Of a DNA stretch of 64,000 nucleotides, positions 10,888 through 49,853 are shown piece by piece. The notes below the pieces were generated by a model, which searched no databases, was not told the DNA's origin, and saw only the letters and a program-made list of their open reading frames with translations. Within the stretch, counting starts at the first letter, position 1, and each line of letters begins with the position of its first letter. The position numbers and the translations under genes were made by a program. Origin of the DNA: Candidatus Omnitrophota bacterium (GTDB lineage: Bacteria; Omnitrophota; Gorgyraeia; Gygaellales; Profunditerraquicolaceae); the NCBI GenBank assembly GCA_028712375.1, contig JAQTQG010000002.1:8032-72031 (forward strand), given 5' to 3'.

Positions 10888-11555
10888 TTTAACCCCATTG
10901 TTTTATGGATCTGGGGGATAACACAAGTGGTAACCCCCTCCTGGCTGGCAATTTCTTTAAAGTTCTTCATTTTTTCAAGTAAAACCGCTTGATTCTCGTA
11001 ACTATTCGGCTGTAAAACTAAAACACTGGAAGGGCTTATTTCTTTAATGATTGCCAAAGCCTCCTTCAAATCCTCTTCATAGGTCGCCTGACAGATAATT
11101 GCTTTAAGAAACACTTCTTTTTTAGAAGCAACTTTTAAAAATTTCCGGTGTAATTGCCAAAGATTACCCATTCCGGAAGAACTGGGAAATTTCAGATCCA
11201 TAGCGATAATATCAATATGATCAATTAATTTCTCCAGCTCAAAAAACAGGGTTCCGTTTGTTTCCAGGTAGTGCCGGTGGCCGTGGCCGCTGGTAAGCGC
11301 AATAATCTTCTTCAGAAAATCCGCATAAAGAAGCGGCTCACCTCCGGTAAAAGAAATAGAATGATATTTGTCACGGTAAAGGCAGATCTCTTCAAAAAGT
11401 TCATCCGGATCATATTCTGTGAACCGGTCCAGCTTAGTATCACAATAAATACAGCTGAGGTTGCAATCAAAAAAACGCACAAAAATCTGCTTCTCCCCTA
11501 AATACAGGCCTTCACCCTGCACGCTATCGAATACCTCGGAAATCCTGGCTTTCAC
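10884..11555 (-). CDS. queE: 7-carboxy-7-deazaguanine synthase QueE (radical SAM)
   Basis: CNLSCIYCDTK radical-SAM-like cluster motif. ~220 aa, inside the que operon. Confidence 0.85.
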   Translation of the reverse strand: MKARISEVFDSVQGEGLYLGEKQIFVRFFDCNLSCIYCDTKLDRFTEYDPDELFEEICLYRDKYHSISFTGGEPLLYADFLKKIIALTSGHGHRHYLETNGTLFFELEKLIDHIDIIAMDLKFPSSSGMGNLWQLHRKFLKVASKKEVFLKAIICQATYEEDLKEALAIIKEISPSSVLVLQPNSYENQAVLLEKMKNFKEIASQEGVTTCVIPQIHKTMGLK

Positions 11556-11631
11556 CCCGCCCCTTCTTTCTTATTTAGTTTATTTAACCGGACAGCTTTA
11601 GAAATCAAACATTTAGCAGGAACAGGGTTCA

Positions 11632-12291
11632 TCAATTAATTAACGGATCCGTCAAACCCGCCTCCTCAAAACCTTTAGCCCGGTAATAACAACTATCGCA
11701 TTCCTGACACGGTTTTACGCTTGCCCGATAGCATGACCGGGTAAGGTTAAATGGCACGCCAAGCTTATTACCCAAACGAATAATCTGCGATTTATTTTTA
11801 TTTAACAGGGGAGCCACTATCTTAATTTTATTTTTAGTAGCCAGCCCGACTTTAGCCATTTTCCTGAAAGCTTCAAAAAACTCCTCGCGGCAATCCGGAT
11901 ACCCGGAATAATCCTGCGCGTGCGCACCGATAAAAATCGCCTGCGCTTTAATCACTTCTGCCAATGATAAAGCAAAACTTAAAAATATAATATTGCGCGC
12001 CGGCACATAAGTAGCCGGAACTCCTGGGGTAATTTTCTTGGGAACCTTCATCTTTTCATCCAGCAGCGCAGACCCTTTCCAAGGAAATGCTATCTTTAAA
12101 ATTCTATATACGCAATTGCTGGCCCGGGCAATTTTTACTGCACAAGCTACCTCCTGCTTATGCCTTTGCCCATAGTCGAAAATTAAAACCTGGCATTTAT
12201 ACCCTTTGGCTTTGGCTAAGTACAAAACCGTAGCTGAATCCAGCCCGCCGGACAAAAGCACTACCGCAGTCTTTAAAATTTTATTCTTCAC
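11632..12291 (-). CDS. queC: 7-cyano-7-deazaguanine synthase QueC
   Basis: PP-loop VVLLSGGLDS and a C-terminal Cys cluster (CQECDSC). Confidence 0.9.
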   Translation of the reverse strand: MKNKILKTAVVLLSGGLDSATVLYLAKAKGYKCQVLIFDYGQRHKQEVACAVKIARASNCVYRILKIAFPWKGSALLDEKMKVPKKITPGVPATYVPARNIIFLSFALSLAEVIKAQAIFIGAHAQDYSGYPDCREEFFEAFRKMAKVGLATKNKIKIVAPLLNKNKSQIIRLGNKLGVPFNLTRSCYRASVKPCQECDSCYYRAKGFEEAGLTDPLIN

Positions 12292-12347
12292 CTTGCACCT
12301 TATTTTATATTTAGTCCATTAACCCGATAACCTTAATAATCGAATAA

Positions 12348-12764
12348 TTAGAAGGTGCCGGGTTCATAGGTAGCGCTGCTTGTACTATTCTCCCAGACCG
12401 TTACACAACTTAATAGTGGTATAACGGGCTTGAGCTGATCATAGATATATTTAGCAATATTTTCAGAGGTCGGATTTATTTTTTTACCGCCGGATACGGA
12501 TCCCCGCCTGACCGGCGGGCAGGCGCCTTTAACGGAAAAATATGGGATATGGTTAAGATATTTATGGTCCATCTTTTCCAAACAAGCATTTAATTTTTTC
12601 TTCAGGAATTTGAAATCCAAAACCATTCCAATTTTATCTAATTCACCAGACCTGGCCATTATTTCCACCACCCAATTATGGCCATGCAAATCTTCGCATT
12701 TGCCTTTGTAACCCCTTAAATTATGCGCGGAGCTAAACGTCCCCTGCACTTTTAAACTATACAT
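12348..12764 (-). CDS. queD: 6-carboxy-5,6,7,8-tetrahydropterin synthase QueD
   Basis: PTPS family: CEDLHGHNW ... a second His motif. Confidence 0.85.
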   Translation of the reverse strand: MYSLKVQGTFSSAHNLRGYKGKCEDLHGHNWVVEIMARSGELDKIGMVLDFKFLKKKLNACLEKMDHKYLNHIPYFSVKGACPPVRRGSVSGGKKINPTSENIAKYIYDQLKPVIPLLSCVTVWENSTSSATYEPGTF

Positions 12765-13548
12765 TATCCACCTTCCTCACGTTCATTAATTTTACCCCCA
12801 TGAATCTTTGCGCTAATGAACTAAACCATTCAGGGTTATCGCTGACATAGAACCGATGCTTACCGCCTTTTCCACGATTAAGTAAATCTTCACTGGCCAG
12901 GATCTTCTTTATTTCAAAAGCCACCTGTTTGGCAGAATCAATCAAGATAACATTCTTCCCCAGGACTTCCTGAATCACCGGCTTAAGTAAAGGATAATGC
13001 GTACAGCCTAAAATTACTGTATCTACGCCAGCCTGGCGCAGCGGTTTTAAATATTGCCTGGCCACGCTTAAAACTACCTCTCCGGAAAGCCAGCCCTCCT
13101 CCACAAAAGGAACAAATAAAGGACAGGCCACCGCCGTTACTTTAACCTTAGGATCAAGCTGCTTAATTTCGGTTTCATATGTACGGCTCTTAACCGTTCC
13201 ATTAGTCCCGATCACTCCAATCCGCTTATTTTGTGAAGCATAAACTGCTTCTCTGGCTCCGGGAGTAATTACGCCGATAATCGGGACGCGAAAGTTATTC
13301 CTAATCACCGGAAGCGCGAAACTGGATGCGGTATTACAAGCAACACAAATCAGCTTAACATCCTGCTTTAATAAAAATAAAATATTCTCGATAGAAAAAC
13401 GGATTACGGTTTGGGGCGACTTAATCCCGTAAGGAACGCGGGCAGTGTCGCCAAAATAAACTATGTTTTCACCAGGCAGCTGGCGGATTATTTCCCTGGC
13501 CACTGTAAGCCCGCCTACACCGGAATCAAAAACACCGATTGCACCCAT
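12757..13548 (-). CDS. murI: Glutamate racemase
   Basis: VFDSGVGGLTV ... ILGCTHYP. Confidence 0.9.
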   Translation of the reverse strand: MGAIGVFDSGVGGLTVAREIIRQLPGENIVYFGDTARVPYGIKSPQTVIRFSIENILFLLKQDVKLICVACNTASSFALPVIRNNFRVPIIGVITPGAREAVYASQNKRIGVIGTNGTVKSRTYETEIKQLDPKVKVTAVACPLFVPFVEEGWLSGEVVLSVARQYLKPLRQAGVDTVILGCTHYPLLKPVIQEVLGKNVILIDSAKQVAFEIKKILASEDLLNRGKGGKHRFYVSDNPEWFSSLAQRFMGVKLMNVRKVDNV

Positions 13549-13615
13549 TAAACACCTTCTTTCTTATTCTTGGCTAAACTTTATATTTTAAAAACTTAGC
13601 TACACAAAGGACAGG

Positions 13616-14753: not shown

Positions 14754-14805
14754 CCAAAATTGAAAATTTTGGCGAGGTCTCACCATTTTTGCAAAGCAAA
14801 AATGG
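14754..14805 (-). terminator. Tandem hairpins immediately 3' of tmRNA (possible terminator/processing structures)
   Basis: CCATTTTTGC-aaa-GCAAAAATGG overlaps the tmRNA CCA end. GCCAAAATT-gaa-AATTTTGGC follows. No clean U-tract. Confidence 0.3.
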
Positions 14806-15209
14806 TGGAGGTGCGGGGAATCGGACCCCGGTCCTTAAGTAATCGCATAAAAGCCGCTACATGCTTAGCCTGATATTTTAATTCTTAACCTTGTAACTCC
14901 TACCCGGCAGGATTTACAAAGCGCAGCCTTTTCGATTTCGCCCCGGTTTGGAAGGCTAACCGCCGGAACTATCCTACTTGAGCCCTAATCTATCCCGTAG
15001 GCAGGACAGTCAGGGGCTTCGGGCTTAATTAAGTCCGAAGGCTGGTACGAACATCGGTTTAGCCGCAAAAGACGGCTGAACAAATGTTCCTAAACGTGAC
15101 ACTTGCGTGTTTGCGTTTGTATTGTGCAAGGATTGTTAACGCGGCTAACCGTGCGTCCGCGGCATGCTGCTCTTATCCGACATATCTTAAGTCGAACCCT
15201 TTCACCCCC
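14803..15209 (-). ncRNA. ssrA: tmRNA (ssrA)
   Basis: Minus-strand 5' end is GGGGGTGAAAGGGTTCGAC. The 3' end is tRNA-like, GGACCGGGGTCCGATTCCCCGCACCTCCACCA, with an encoded CCA. The acceptor pairs GGGGGTG/CACCTCC. It lies directly upstream of smpB. I could not assign the tag-peptide reading frame. Confidence 0.8.
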
Positions 15210-30762: not shown

Positions 30763-30837
30763 CCCCGCACCTTCCATATATCCAACTATTAAAACCGTGC
30801 GGGATAACAAATTAAATGAGAAAGAAGGTGCGGGGTG
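30763..30837 (+). promoter_or_regulatory. Inverted-repeat hairpin sequestering the lptF Shine-Dalgarno and GTG start (CCCCGCACCTTC...GAAGGTGCGGGG-TG)
   Basis: 12-bp arms separated by ~49 nt. The 3' arm contains the SD GAAGGTG and ends in the GTG start codon. An identical module sits upstream of radA at 49076-49147. Confidence 0.6.
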
Positions 30838-31938
30838 AAGATCCTGCGTAATTACATTTTAAGGGAATTCCTCGGTCCGCTGCTTCTGGTTTTGGGAGTG
30901 TTGACCTTTGTTATGGTGCTTATCGGCAATTTAAAACGCATCGCGGATCTAGTGATTAATAAAGGAGTGGATATCTTTAGTGTCATCCAGATTTTCATCT
31001 ACCTTACTCCTTATATTGTTACTTATACCTTGCCCATATCAATACTAGTGGCAGTATTACTGGCTTTAGGCAGATTAAGCGGAGACAATGAAGTAATCGC
31101 AATCCGCGCCAGCGGCATCAACTTATTTAAATTAATACTGCCCTTACTAACCATCGGATTAGCCTTGAGTTTAGCCCTGGCAGTTTTTAACGACCAGGCA
31201 GCATCCTATTCCCATTTTGCTTACCGCAAAACCTTGCAGGAAATGGGGATTAAAAATCCTACTGCCGCCTTTGAAGAAGGAGTATTTATTGATTCCTTCA
31301 AAAAATACATTCTTTTTATCTACAATGTTGACCAGAAAAAAAACCGGCTCAATAACATCCGCATCTATGAACCACAGGGCGAAGACCGGCCCACTCGCAC
31401 GATTGTGGCGAAAGCCGGAGAATTTATTACTGTGCCCGGTAAAAACACCGTAAAATTGAAGCTTATCGATGGAACCAGTGATGAGCCGGATCCGGAGAAC
31501 CCGACTAATTTTTATAAACTAAATTTCCGTACCTACTTCATGAACCTGGATATGGCACAAATGCAGGATAAGGTTGTAGAAAAGAAATATAAAGAAATGA
31601 CAATCCGCGAACTCAAAAAAGAAGCGGCTAAGCTTAAATCCGAAGGCATCAGCCCGGCGCCCCTAATCACCAAAATACATGAAAAACTAGCTTTGGCATT
31701 CTCCTGCTTTGTTTTCATGCTTCTGGGATCCTCATTGGGAATTATTACGCGCAGGCGCGAAAAATCCATTAACATCGGAATTGCCGTACTGATCATTGTC
31801 TGCTACTATCCTTTATATATCGGCTTAACCGCGCTGGCTATGGAAGGAGCTTTACCGGCAGCACTTGCCATCTGGTTGCCGAATATTATCTTTGCCGGTG
31901 TAGGCAGCTATTTAACTTATAAACTATGCGCATCTTAG
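30835..31938 (+). CDS. lptF: LPS export ABC transporter permease LptF (YjgP/YjgQ family)
   Basis: 6-TM YjgP/YjgQ architecture with a periplasmic beta-jellyroll insert. GTG start. Paired with lptG. Confidence 0.8.
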   Translation: MKILRNYILREFLGPLLLVLGVLTFVMVLIGNLKRIADLVINKGVDIFSVIQIFIYLTPYIVTYTLPISILVAVLLALGRLSGDNEVIAIRASGINLFKLILPLLTIGLALSLALAVFNDQAASYSHFAYRKTLQEMGIKNPTAAFEEGVFIDSFKKYILFIYNVDQKKNRLNNIRIYEPQGEDRPTRTIVAKAGEFITVPGKNTVKLKLIDGTSDEPDPENPTNFYKLNFRTYFMNLDMAQMQDKVVEKKYKEMTIRELKKEAAKLKSEGISPAPLITKIHEKLALAFSCFVFMLLGSSLGIITRRREKSINIGIAVLIIVCYYPLYIGLTALAMEGALPAALAIWLPNIIFAGVGSYLTYKLCAS

Positions 31939-47692: not shown

Positions 47693-49078
47693 TTAAACCT
47701 GTTGTTTCTGGCTGCAAAGTATAATATCTAGCGCCTCCTTTAAAGTTGAGACGGCAATAATTTCCATATCTGATTTTTTAAATTTAAGATTCTTAATGCT
47801 GTTCTTAGGTAAAATGCAGTGTTTAAACCCTAATTTCTCTGCCTCATTAATCCGCGTAAGCACCTGTGAAATACTTCTAATTTCGCCGCTCAAACCTACC
47901 TCTCCCAAAACTATAGATTTGGGCAATACTTCCTGATCACGAAAACTGGAAGCAATCACCGCGCACACCGCTAAATCCGCTGCCGGGTCTTCGATTTTAA
48001 TCCCCCCGGTAACATTAATAAATATATCTTCAGCTTCCAACGCCAACCCCATGCGTTTCTCTAAAACCGCAACTAATAAAGACAAGCGGTTAAAATCAAA
48101 ACCTTGCGCGCGCCGGCGGGCATAGCCAAAGCTGCTCCGGGAGACTAAAGACTGAATCTCCACTAAAAGCGGGCGGGTCCCTTCCAAGATCGAAGTAACA
48201 ATCGTGCCGGAAACACTGTTTGGCCGTTCTGATAAAAAGATTTCAGAAGGATTCTTTACTTCAGCTAATCCCGCAGATAGCATTTCAAACACTCCGATTT
48301 CATTAGTTGATCCAAACCTGTTTTTCACTGCCCTTAATATTCTGTAAATCGCGAAACGGTCTCCTTCGAAATACAGCACGGTATCTACGATGTGCTCTAA
48401 AACACGCGGCCCGGCTAAAGCACCTTCTTTAGTAACATGCCCGATAATAAAAATTGAGGTTTCCGTAGTTTTGGCTAATTGCGTAAGCACCCCGGCACAT
48501 TCCCTGACCTGGCTGACGCTCCCGGGGGAAGAACTGATCCCGGGGTCAAAGATGACCTGAATAGAATCAATTACTACCACCTGCGGCTTTAATTTTCTTA
48601 TATATTCAACGATTAAAGATAAATCTGTCTGATTAACAATATATAAATTATCGCTTCCTGACTCACCTAAACGCTTTGCGCGCAATTTAGTTTGAGCCAC
48701 GGATTCTTCACCGCTGACATAAAGCACACTGATTCCCTGCTTCGTTAAATGATTAGAAACCTGCAGAGAAATTGTAGATTTACCTACACCGGGATCGCCG
48801 CCGATCAACACCACAGACCCCTTAACAATCCCTCCGCCTAAAACCCGGTCCAGTTCAACAATATTGGTTTTTAACCTGTCCTCATCTTTGGCAACTACAT
48901 CTTTTAAAAGAACCGGCCCGTCTTTATACAGGCTGACCCTTTCTTTAGCACCGGGAGCAACCGGAGTATAATTTTCCTCGGCAAAAGAATTCCAGCTGTT
49001 ACAATCCGGGCAGCGGCCTAACCACTTAGGCGATTGGTAACCGCAAGCCGAACAACTAAAAACTGTTTTGGTCTTCAC
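47693..49078 (-). CDS. radA: DNA repair protein RadA (Sms)
   Basis: N-terminal zinc finger (CSACGYQSPKWLGRCPDCNSWNSF), a RecA-like Walker A (GGDPGVGKST) and a C-terminal Lon-like domain. GTG start. Confidence 0.92.
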   Translation of the reverse strand: MKTKTVFSCSACGYQSPKWLGRCPDCNSWNSFAEENYTPVAPGAKERVSLYKDGPVLLKDVVAKDEDRLKTNIVELDRVLGGGIVKGSVVLIGGDPGVGKSTISLQVSNHLTKQGISVLYVSGEESVAQTKLRAKRLGESGSDNLYIVNQTDLSLIVEYIRKLKPQVVVIDSIQVIFDPGISSSPGSVSQVRECAGVLTQLAKTTETSIFIIGHVTKEGALAGPRVLEHIVDTVLYFEGDRFAIYRILRAVKNRFGSTNEIGVFEMLSAGLAEVKNPSEIFLSERPNSVSGTIVTSILEGTRPLLVEIQSLVSRSSFGYARRRAQGFDFNRLSLLVAVLEKRMGLALEAEDIFINVTGGIKIEDPAADLAVCAVIASSFRDQEVLPKSIVLGEVGLSGEIRSISQVLTRINEAEKLGFKHCILPKNSIKNLKFKKSDMEIIAVSTLKEALDIILCSQKQQV

Positions 49079-49147
49079 CCCGCACCTTCTTGTTATTAAT
49101 TCATTAAACCATCAGCTTTAGTACTTGAACAATAAGAAGGTGCGGGG
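49076..49147 (-). promoter_or_regulatory. Inverted-repeat hairpin sequestering the radA Shine-Dalgarno and GTG start (second copy of the 30763 module)
   Basis: mRNA sense reads AAACCCCGCACCTTCTT-(44 nt)-AAGAAGGTGCGGG-GTG-AAG. The 18-nt agaaggtgcggggtgaag is identical to the lptF copy. Confidence 0.6.
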
Positions 49148-49238
49148 TTTGCCCCTTTTGCACCTTCTCCCTATTCATTAACTCTAAACCAAACCCTGCG
49201 CCTTCTAATATTTAAACAAAAGAAAACACAGGGGTTCA

Positions 49239-49853
49239 TTATTTCTTCTCTTTAGCCTTAATTAATAATTTCCAGGGGTTCTTACGCACATCCGCAACAA
49301 AAGCTTCCAGTTCGTTATAAATCGCATCATCATAGATAAGCCTGCCTAAAGAGCCTTCTTTATTCACAATCTTGGCAATCCCGTTATCTACATTATTCAT
49401 TATACTTTCTGCCTTACGCAGCAACTCCTGCGTAGGCAAAGGATCAACCCCGGTGAGATACCCATTTTCCTGAAGAGTAAGGGAATAATCTTTCCCCGGC
49501 ATGATCTCTACATATTTTTCACCCAATAATCCCAAAGTATTCACCCATACCGTGGAATCAACCGGCACGCGCACTATATCCCTGATCCAAACCTCCAGGC
49601 ATACACTTGTATGATTCTGATCCGGCTTAAACTGCAGGTTAATTTTCTTTACCTCCCCGACATCTACCCCGGCAAAACGCACAGGTGCCCCGATTTTCAC
49701 CCCGTTAACAAAATTAAAAATAAGATTAATCCGGTAGCCGGAACTCCAGGTTTTAAATCCGCCGATCGATAATATAAAAATAACCAAAACGACCAATCCG
49801 ATAAAAACGAAAATTCCTACTTTAAGTTCTAATTTGGTTTTACCAAAAATCAT
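49239..49853 (-). CDS. mlaD: MCE-domain protein MlaD
   Basis: N-terminal TM helix plus an MCE domain. Confidence 0.8.
   Translation of the reverse strand: MIFGKTKLELKVGIFVFIGLVVLVIFILSIGGFKTWSSGYRINLIFNFVNGVKIGAPVRFAGVDVGEVKKINLQFKPDQNHTSVCLEVWIRDIVRVPVDSTVWVNTLGLLGEKYVEIMPGKDYSLTLQENGYLTGVDPLPTQELLRKAESIMNNVDNGIAKIVNKEGSLGRLIYDDAIYNELEAFVADVRKNPWKLLIKAKEKK

Follow-up and report, generated by a model that had tools for sequence, protein, structure and literature searches.

The inverted repeat between mlaD and radA very probably represents the terminal inverted repeats of a mobile, MITE-like hairpin element without an ORF, copies of which inserted at the ancestral start of radA. The window, that is the whole stretch of 64,000 nucleotides that we analysed, carries further copies, including one at the start of lptF. 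A more far-reaching proposal, to which we give about even chances, is that a minimal transposable element not recognised before has left gene-less copies of itself as the hairpins of radA and lptF. Its sole gene would encode an Ssn-like GIY-YIG nuclease of ∼90 aa, it would generate duplications of 3–6 bp, and in Omnitrophota it would enter (A/G)TGA(A/G) starts in the sense orientation, bringing along a substitute ribosome-binding site together with the G that opens a new GTG start, with the nuclease stop overlapping the host start. If this is true, the overlap would allow the selfish gene to be expressed from host operons and the host gene to stay alive.

The inverted repeat at 49078–49147 exists and is far beyond chance; in a repeat scan of the window none was longer (arms 49077–49108 and 49117–49148). 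Both mlaD and radA lie on the minus strand. Read in mRNA sense, the 5′ arm CCCCGCACCTTCTTATTG (49147–49130) pairs with the 3′ arm CAATAACAAGAAGGTGCGGGG (49098–49078) through 14 perfect pairs, a bulge and 5 further pairs, so the arms of 17 nt with one bulge given by the sequence-only reading were a fair description. Its gene names are likewise borne out by Pfam (Table 1). Exact matches to the 12-mer GAAGGTGCGGGG or its complement number four in the window, namely both arms at radA and both arms at lptF. When up to two mismatches are allowed, 12 matches are found in the window versus 4.05 ± 1.97 in shuffled sequences, and none of 100 shuffles reaches 12. Terminal inverted repeats (CCCCGCACCTTC.../...GAAGGTGCGGGG) delimit the short unit on both sides.

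Table 1. Coordinates of the hairpin element copies, their flanking duplications (TSD) and neighbouring genes in the window
Feature	Position	Strand	Remarks
Copy at radical-SAM (queE-like) gene start	11555..11627	-	TSD TGAA 11628-11631, 11551-11554
Copy at queC start	12291..12362	-	TSD TGAA 12363-12366, 12287-12290
lptF-start copy	30763..30835	+	68.4 bits; TSD TGAA 30759-30762, 30836-30839
LptF/LptG	30835-31938	+	Pfam
RadA-like	47693-49078	-	Pfam
Right target-site duplication copy TGAA	49074..49077	-	single TGAA in L122 empty site
radA GTG start	49076..49078	-	G is the last base of E2; TG from duplicated TGAA
E2, complete 70-bp ORF-less copy	49078..49147	-	covariance model R1, 67 bits, E=3e-15
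SD-like GAAGGTG in E2 3′ arm, 4 nt 5′ of GTG	49083..49089	-	
CAAA spacer, E1 to E2	49148..49151	-	
E1, degenerate 83-bp copy	49152..49234	-	R1, 40.7 bits, E=3e-8
Relic mini-ORF MNPCVFFCLNIRRRRVWFRVNE with stop, ancestral ATG to TAG inside E1	49171..49239	-	read from sequence
Left target-site duplication copy TGAA	49235..49238	-	
MlaD	49239-49853	-	Pfam

The gap between mlaD and radA is filled by two copies, E1 and E2, which are bracketed by duplicated TGAA. In E1 the 5′ arm CCCCTGTGTTTTCT is paired by an internal AGAAGGCGCAGGG, and the 3′ arm reads GAGAAGGTGC-AAAA-GGGG. The left TGAA together with the preceding A is the ancestral ATG of radA, overlapping the TAA stop of mlaD. At the other end, the GAAGGTG of E2 is the only SD-like sequence upstream of radA (ordinary SDs of this genome are GGAGG-like), and the GTG start aligns with the position at which RadA orthologues (MKTKTVFSC) have their ATG. 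This arrangement very probably arose when two copies in succession entered the TGAA of the ancestral overlap between mlaD stop and radA start (...AAATAATGAAGACC...), the TGAA being duplicated on insertion; the CAAA spacer is probably the mutated middle TGAA left by the two events. The last G of ...GAAGGTGCGGGG and the duplicated TGAA rebuild a start codon (GTG AAG...), and the arm supplies radA with its SD-like sequence. Since the element brings both the SD-like sequence and the G of GTG, radA is still translatable, with an N-terminus collinear with that of its orthologues.

Related genomes provide the corresponding empty sites. No insert is present upstream of radA in any of 12 related loci (63–90% RadA identity). 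The junction is readable in the three of them (L122, L124 and L130) in which radA directly follows a conserved MlaD-type C-terminus, and here the mlaD stop and radA start overlap as TAATG (...GAAAAGAAATAATGAAAACAAG, ...AAATAATGACC and ...AAATAATCATGAGAACC, respectively; the empty junction of L122 is AAATAATGAAAAC). The insert does split a junction that was formerly tight.

A covariance model search of the window returned five copies at four gene starts (radA, lptF, a queE-like gene and queC). Every copy sits in sense orientation in an ancestral ATGAA start, with TGAA on either side, and excision of any of them gives back a normal stop/start junction. The lptF copy contains a mini-ORF (MNPAPSIYPTIKTVRDNKLNEKEGAG followed by a stop) whose TGA overlaps the GTG start, and the PTPS (queD-like) gene upstream of queC now terminates within the queC-start copy. 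Of the ∼10 GTG starts that the window has among listed ORFs of 100 aa or more, 4 exist only through the hairpin element. No nuclease gene was found within the 64 kb. E1, the copies at 11555–11627 and 12291–12362 and the TGAA direct repeat around every copy had all been missed in the sequence-only reading.

Beyond the window, the hairpin arms were found in at least 119 public MAG loci, labelled mostly as Omnitrophota and CPR. Among the 124 copies in the matches listed, 62 have identical 4-bp flanks, versus 8.8 with shuffled partners; another 13 have flanking repeats of 3, 5 or 6 bp, and 49 lack a clean repeat. Repeat lengths scattered over 3–6 bp are not what one transposase usually produces. 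The flanking 4-mer varies by copy (TGAA, TCAA, TAAA and others). In the listed matches, the base before TGAA-flanked copies is A (24) or G (2–3), and behind most of these copies an ORF longer than 100 codons begins at G+TG. Other insertion sites include –35-like boxes and pilin leaders; Saccharibacteria copies are in frame within pilin leader peptides. The two arms co-vary between copies (CCCAGCCCTTCCT/AGGAAGGGCTGGG; TCCC.../...GGGA), and at one locus (L056) the same arms enclose a tRNA-Arg. Viral contigs gave no matches to the element, and a literature search by sequence string and on MITEs in Omnitrophota returned nothing relevant.

The family includes larger members of ∼300–340 bp, which share these arms, are likewise bordered by direct repeats and have a single gene, encoding a single-domain GIY-YIG nuclease of ∼85–97 aa (PF01541, E=7e-16; partner ORFs of 85–97 aa have PF01541 only). 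A search of PDB found no close relative of the nuclease. The association was seen from both directions: loci picked by the hairpin alone include nuclease-bearing ones (L051, L034, L066 and L060), and all four loci picked by protein similarity alone (L201, L206, L208 and L210) have the arms, either CCCCGCACCTTTT or its variants of one to three bases (L201 and L208). Their flanking repeats are CATGAA in L201, TAAAA in L206 and TCAA in L210; no flanking repeat was identified for L208, the arms of which are degenerate. One Omnitrophota element (L214, 185–509) matches the subfamily of the window, its arms and subterminal sequence agreeing with those of the window copies. Its target-site duplication is TGAG, within the ATGAG start of gpsA, and its nuclease ORF ends in ...LNKREGAG, with the TGA overlapping the GTG of the host gene. 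The window copies keep this nuclease tail as mini-ORF remnants (...KEGAG and stop).

The ORF-less copies, whose coding capacity is limited to relic mini-ORFs and includes no mobilising enzyme, look like internal-deletion derivatives of these nuclease elements. We infer that the nuclease mobilises them in trans, a step probably involving single-stranded DNA in which the element is folded into a hairpin, in the manner of Ssn nucleases. For radA the consequences would follow from the insertion itself. If the arms pair in mRNA, hiding the SD and GTG, translation of radA would drop and its direct coupling to mlaD would be lost, as a side effect of the insertion and not as a selected control device.

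Folding predictions agree with sequestration as such. Mean predicted P(unpaired) of the SD and start is 0.03 when E2 is folded by itself and 0.12 when the entire intergenic region is folded, and the SD and start are predicted to be paired in the radA, lptF and 11555 copies (0.03–0.12). There is, however, an alternative fold in which the 5′ arm of E2 pairs with the 3′ arm of E1 and frees the SD; with E1 included, it differs from the sequestered fold by only ∼0.4 kcal/mol (–66.6 versus –67.0). The notion that the SD and GTG of radA are mostly paired thus stands as a prediction, but the suggestion that sequestration is even more stable here than at lptF is not established, since the two folds are nearly equal in energy. 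No intrinsic terminator-like site was found on the minus strand of 49079–49238, where the stem is followed by GUGAAGACC. Any effect of the hairpin on radA expression is a matter of thermodynamic prediction and would be incidental to the insertion.

It could be argued that the insertion, once transposed in, has been exapted and is now under selection, the opening of the stem by ribosomes or helicases having become a requirement of radA translation and with it a novel means of coupling or attenuation. Window copies share 58–75% pairwise identity, and E2 and the lptF copy have perfect arms with interiors only ∼75% identical, so selection on the arms after insertion could be at work. Furthermore, among the matches listed, 33 of the 34 copies located at start codons have the sense orientation, and in about a third the mini-ORF stop lies over the GTG start, which is a layout of translational coupling. 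Both the orientation and the mini-ORF are nevertheless expected of copies descended from a nuclease-bearing parent, and the mini-ORF is better explained as a putative remnant of the nuclease C-terminus. Close relatives do without the insert, and the radA mini-ORF ends ∼95 nt before the start. Flipping the interior leaves predicted SD accessibility and mini-ORF coupling unchanged. On these grounds two candidate causes of the orientation bias were rejected: an internal decoy (AGAAGGCGYAGGG) that would keep the SD open (native versus flipped, 0.090 versus 0.085, Wilcoxon p=0.26), and mini-ORF/GTGA coupling (kept in 11 native and 10 flipped constructs). Taken with this evidence, exaptation appears unlikely.

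Another possibility is that we are dealing with an ordinary MITE, moved by an unseen classical DDE transposase (with CC... ends and 4–5-bp duplications, for example), and that the GIY-YIG gene is a passenger. Terminal inverted repeats accompanied by duplications mostly of 4 bp are what a DDE transposase classically leaves, the arms can hold other cargo, such as the tRNA-Arg mentioned above, and neither transposition of DNA nor the making of target-site duplications is known for any GIY-YIG nuclease. The nuclease could be cargo. Against this, a search for arms (exact or with up to two mismatches) lying 300–5000 bp apart in ∼0.8 Mb of loci found only neighbouring small copies and no element of transposase size with these ends. 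The nuclease is the sole gene in L051, L034, L066, L060, L201, L206, L208, L210 and L214, and L054 and L097 each have a homologous nuclease as sole gene between related arms of the CCCCGTTAGAG type. In addition, the 3′ end of the nuclease gene is retained in ORF-less copies, and the published Ssn family pairs a nuclease with repeats in the same way (PMC11893778). We therefore hold a DDE-driven MITE to be distinctly improbable.

Least plausible by far, with only the slightest probability, is the proposal of the sequence-only reading of a dedicated cis-regulatory RNA, such as a thermometer or translational operator, whose evolved role would be to control the translation of radA and lptF by SD sequestration, to which the stable stem holding SD and start codon and the alternative pairing in the radA leader, a potential switch, would be suited: the empty orthologous sites at 12 of 12 radA loci appear largely to refute it, the hairpin is flanked by target-site duplications and recurs at queC, at queE and at many unrelated sites elsewhere with the arms of the GIY-YIG element family, Rfam, searched with the window at the gathering threshold and with the intergenic region at E≤10, gave only chance miRNA-type matches, sense-strand mismatches in degenerate copies show no significant excess of G-U over A-C (13 versus 8), and nothing points to control of radA by DNA damage or heat.

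Of the known systems, the closest to the mobile element proposed here is Ssn/SRM (Chenal et al., Nat Commun 2025, PMC11893778). It comprises a single-domain GIY-YIG nuclease of ∼90 aa (CDD cd10448) with hairpin-forming NTS/SRM repeats on either side and many gene-less, directional repeat copies across the genome (PMC11893778). Here too a gene for a GIY-YIG protein of about this size has hairpin-forming sequence on both sides, and gene-less directional copies are scattered; a related layout is seen in two Omnitrophota homologues (L215 and L216), where local hairpin motifs in direct orientation stand on either side of the gene. In the elements described here, by contrast, the gene is enclosed by the arms of a single long inverted repeat instead of two self-contained hairpins, and the published SRM motif HGTCWYN(0-2)YYVSBRHN(0-5)WNVSBRGN(0-2)RNCYNB has no match in the window or in any of the nuclease-flanking regions examined. 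Flanking duplications of 3–6 bp and empty orthologous sites are not reported for Ssn (the word 'duplication' is absent from PMC11893778), nor is there any description of start codons as preferred sites or of an SD and GTG being rebuilt. Its authors likened the layout to an insertion sequence, and mobility was only hypothesised (PMC11893778). The duplications, empty sites and insertions in frame and at start codons now provide sequence-level evidence that small GIY-YIG/hairpin modules move. Should the minimal-transposon reading be true, it would be the first evidence that nuclease/hairpin modules of the Ssn type are true transposons, and the family points to a transposition chemistry so far undescribed for GIY-YIG enzymes.

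Bacterial MITEs, such as Correia/NEMIS of Neisseria, RUP and ERIC, are short and gene-less, with terminal inverted repeats and target-site duplications; they occur in many, mostly intergenic copies, and their transcribed hairpins can alter the expression of neighbours (PMC3184786). Terminal inverted repeats, short target duplications that differ between copies, empty sites and many ORF-less copies are all found here. What sets the present family apart is that the gene-carrying relative encodes a GIY-YIG nuclease and not a DDE transposase, and that the Omnitrophota subfamily sits exactly on (A/G)TGA(A/G) starts, in one orientation, replacing the host RBS and start. IS200/IS605, PATEs and REP/RAYT are similar in being hairpin-dependent single-strand mobile DNA with small gene-less palindromic derivatives that multiply; however, IS200/IS605 and REP/RAYT make no target duplication and have subterminal hairpins and a Y1 HUH transposase, none of which applies to our element, with its duplications, terminal arms and GIY-YIG partner. 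Rickettsia palindromic elements are mobile palindromes tolerated in expressed sequence by keeping frame, and in this the Saccharibacteria copies in pilin leaders resemble them; they are longer than the present element, share no sequence similarity with it and, to our knowledge, have no nuclease partner, and the radA copy lies outside coding sequence. ROSE and fourU thermometers also pair SD and start codon in a stem of the 5′ leader, but they are conserved at orthologues and marginally stable, whereas here a perfect stem of ∼–35 kcal/mol is absent from orthologues. A resemblance to IS5, whose end is GGAAGGTGCG, was rejected, as that end is inverted in orientation relative to the ends of the hairpin element.

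A mobile element that carries its own SD and start codon can inhabit tightly packed operons. The arms of the family imitate regulatory hairpins and break short-read assemblies; its recognition should help to avoid 'riboswitch-like' misreadings and aid the calling of gene starts in Omnitrophota and CPR. In exact-protein searches RadA had no match, and MlaD was matched only on a Logan contig of 953 bp, which breaks off within the arm of E2. As a minor observation, the interior of E2 closely resembles that of a copy from an Omnitrophota MAG (L030).

In the sequence-only reading, the inverted repeat ahead of radA was taken for a device in the 5' untranslated region that sequesters the Shine-Dalgarno (SD) sequence. 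The repeat is indeed there and is the longest inverted repeat found by inverted-repeat search of the window. All genes around it lie on the minus strand, and the mlaD-radA gap is 160 nt. It holds a complete 70-bp, ORF-less copy of a hairpin element (E2) and, upstream, a degenerate 83-bp copy (E1). In E1 the 5' arm, CCCCTGTGTTTTCT, pairs with an internal AGAAGGCGCAGGG, and the 3' arm is GAGAAGGTGC-AAAA-GGGG. The final G of the E2 3' arm is the first base of the radA start codon, and the sole SD-like sequence lies within the same arm. The only public contig with the window's exact MlaD protein (L001, Logan contig from SRR22315508) stops at 944-953 inside the E2 5' arm, which fits a repeat that breaks short-read assembly.

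The 12-mer arm core has exact occurrences in the window only at the radA and lptF sites; 12 near-matches compare with 4.05 in shuffles, roughly a threefold excess. A search of the window with a covariance model made from 34 element copies detects exactly five at E<=3e-8, together with two marginal remnants. At each locus the layout is ...A TGAA [CCC...GGG] TGAA..., and in-silico deletion of the element with one TGAA regains an ordinary junction (table). Scanning metagenome contigs with RadA gave 12 related loci (63–90% identity), none of which carries the element, and over 87 kb of them the covariance model detects no copy. The junction of the closest (L122, 90% RadA identity), ...AAAGAAAAGAAATAATGAAAACAAG, is exactly the empty site predicted, and those of two others (L124 and L130) are equivalent. 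No Rfam family matched the mlaD-radA region. By these comparisons the hairpin arrived at radA by insertion and did not evolve as a leader of this gene. Between mlaD and radA two mobile hairpin elements stand in tandem, and the radA copy, as a gene-less unit, falls under the structural definition of a MITE.

Positions of the features discussed (L numbers denote public loci fetched for comparison)
Feature	Position	Strand	Remark
radA	47693-49078	minus	GTG start at 49078-49076; junction after deletion TAATG AAG ACC
MlaD-domain gene	49239-49853	minus	
E2 5' arm	49147-49130	minus	CCCCGCACCTTCTTATTG (mRNA strand)
E2 3' arm	49098-49078	minus	CAATAACAAGAAGGTGCGGGG (mRNA strand)
SD-like GAAGGTG	49089-49083	minus	
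E1	49152-49234	minus	
Copy before lptF	30763-30835		junction TAA CT ATG AAG ATC
Copy before radical-SAM queE-like gene	11555-11627		junction TGATG AAA GCC
Copy before queC	12291-12362		queD/queC junction overlapping, ATGAAGAATAA
RBS region	13549-13615	minus	GAATAAGAAAGAAGGTGtttaATG
RBS region	12765-12835	minus	AATGAACGTGAGGAAGGTGgataATG
tmRNA	14803-15209	minus	3' end 14803-14818, CCCCGCACCTCCACCA
L022, in-frame pilin-leader copy	1228-1289		Saccharibacteria-labelled MAG
L023, same	5861-5925		Saccharibacteria-labelled MAG
L066, same	3534-3595		Saccharibacteria-labelled MAG
L066, gene-carrying unit in pilin leader	2340-2640		flanks TTTA; ORF in frame into pilin
L051, gene-carrying unit			flanks TTTTGA
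L034, gene-carrying unit			flanks TATA
L060, gene-carrying unit			no clear flanking repeat
L054, L097, gene-carrying units			related arm "dialect" CCCCGTTAGAG
L201			CATGAA|TCCCGCACCTTTTAACCAC...|CATGAA, at ATGA stop/start junction
L206			TAAAA|CCCCGCACCTTTTAAGCGC...|TAAAA
L210			TCAA|CCCCGCACCTTTTGTGCAC...|TCAA
L208			degenerate arms
L214, nuclease-bearing element	185-509		Omnitrophota
L214, L215, L216, other GIY-YIG genes	1501-1950, 1501-1879, 1380-1900		Omnitrophota
L056, tRNA between arms	7415-7517		CCCCGCACCTTCTGTT-[tRNA]-CCA-GAAGGTGCGGGG
L201, L216, PF05635 genes	276-647, 1981-2331		

In folding predictions for E2 alone the arm-arm stem has −35.6 kcal/mol and the mean unpaired probability over SD and GTG is 0.03; for the whole gap it is 0.12. 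An alternative predicted fold, in which the E2 5' arm pairs with the E1 3' arm and the SD is freed, lies only ∼0.4 kcal/mol away (−66.6 versus −67.0) and would be the first to form during transcription. In the gap, the transcribed strand has no promoter- or terminator-like site. The stop/start coupling present at lptF and queE is lost at radA, because the relic ORF from the ancestral radA ATG stops ∼95 nt ahead of the radA start. Judging from these models, radA translation is most likely weaker and uncoupled as a by-product of insertion. The regulatory reading is supported only in part: SD sequestration is plausible, but it is not what the element is for, and no evidence links the expected effect to DNA damage or heat.

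An exact two-arm pattern (CCCCGCACCTT-N25-55-AAGGTGCGGGG) matches at least 119 loci in species-representative genomes, against ∼2 expected by chance (our estimate from collection size); viral contigs gave no match. Among matches listed, most are MAGs labelled, as deposited, Omnitrophota, Saccharibacteria or other CPR, and Planctomycetia, with few Nitrospira and Proteobacteria. Identical 4-bp direct repeats, varying by copy, flank 62 of 124 copies versus 8.8 with shuffled partners, and a further 13 of the 124 have repeats of 3, 5 or 6 bp. Degenerate copies have both arms altered together (e.g. CCCAGCCCTTCCT/AGGAAGGGCTGGG), so arm pairing, or identical recognition of both arms, matters. Three landing sites recur: (A/G)TGA(A/G) start codons, where A (24) or G (2–3) precedes every TGAA copy and long ORFs follow most of them; the −35-box-like TTGAC(A); and, in MAGs labelled Saccharibacteria, TTTA within the G-F-T of type IV pilin leader peptides, where in-frame insertions of 66 or 69 nt remake the cleavage site ...KKGAG|FTLIE. 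Copies with TTGA/TCAA duplications (L026, L065, L073, L104, L105, L108, L119) sit mostly in TTGAC(A), regenerate this hexamer and show no orientation bias.

Tracing arms that had no nearby partner led to ∼300–340-bp units in which the arms enclose, as the sole gene, an ORF of 83–97 aa, a GIY-YIG domain (PF01541, E=7e-16). Independently, nuclease homologues were gathered by protein similarity alone (24 clusters), and all four contexts fetched (L201, L206, L208, L210) have the arms or close variants. The nuclease of L066, given its in-frame fusion, would be produced as a cleavable leader of the pilin. The gene-carrying counterpart of the window subfamily, L214, has the layout A|TGAG|CCCCGCACCTTCTTTATATTCA...ATG(90-aa nuclease)...TTTGAATAAAAGAGAAGGTGCGGGG|TGAG|AGTTTCTGTA..., is inserted at the ATGAG start of gpsA, and matches the window copies over the first ∼20 and last ∼25 nt. 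Its nuclease ends ...LNKREGAG*, with the TGA overlapping the new GTG of gpsA. Since window mini-ORFs end alike (MNPAPSIYPTIKTVRDNKLNEKEGAG* at lptF, ...LNKKEGAG* at queE), the best explanation for the ORF-less copies is internal deletion of a nuclease-bearing element of this kind. The same derivation also accounts for why 33 of 34 start-codon copies lie in sense orientation. No DDE-type transposase partner was found for the element in ∼0.8 Mb of loci; the nuclease may be the enzyme that mobilises the ORF-less copies.

Among described systems the Ssn family comes closest. Its members, single-domain GIY-YIG nucleases of ∼94 aa, cleave ssDNA beside a hairpin repeat (NTS/SRM) that occurs on both sides of the gene and is dispersed in hundreds of copies (PMC11893778). 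The authors of that study note that NTS-ssnA-NTS resembles an insertion sequence and report no duplications or insertion polymorphism. By analogy the present family may work as such a nuclease-repeat system. In contrast to Ssn, however, the gene lies within a single long inverted repeat, our repeats do not match the published SRM motif, duplications and empty sites are evident, and the start-codon/RBS-replacement habit is new. The GIY-YIG-only partner and this start-codon niche make the radA tandem element of interest. Other Omnitrophota nuclease homologues form at least 887 clusters; among those fetched (L214–L216) local hairpins flank the gene in direct orientation, which connects the Ssn and inverted-repeat layouts. 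The motif there is a different one, CGGGGCGTGCCCCGTTACAAATNTC; in L216 a partly duplicated gene start comes after it.

Several minor observations were made. The element accounts for the GTG of four of ∼10 GTG-start ORFs (queE-like, queC, lptF, radA) among window ORFs of at least 100 aa. RBS regions of two further genes (table) resemble its right end minus CGGGG, with covariance model E of only ∼1–3; either these are old copies in decay, or the element mimics an RBS style of its host. The tmRNA 3' end shares 11 of 12 positions with element arm CCCCGCACCTTC, which may be chance, no link being found. In L025, L038, L042, L044, L049 and L068, and also in L079, L080, L084, L095, L097 and L110, the hairpin forms the centre of an imperfect palindrome of larger size, ...CGAATTAA[hairpin]TAAGTTCG..., which suggests nesting in, or preference for, another repeat family. 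In L056 a complete tRNA-Arg(GCG) lies between the arms, which can thus carry non-nuclease cargo or form a processing-stem-like structure. Finally, genes for PF05635 (23S rRNA-intervening-sequence protein) adjoin nuclease-bearing copies at two unrelated loci, L201 and L216.
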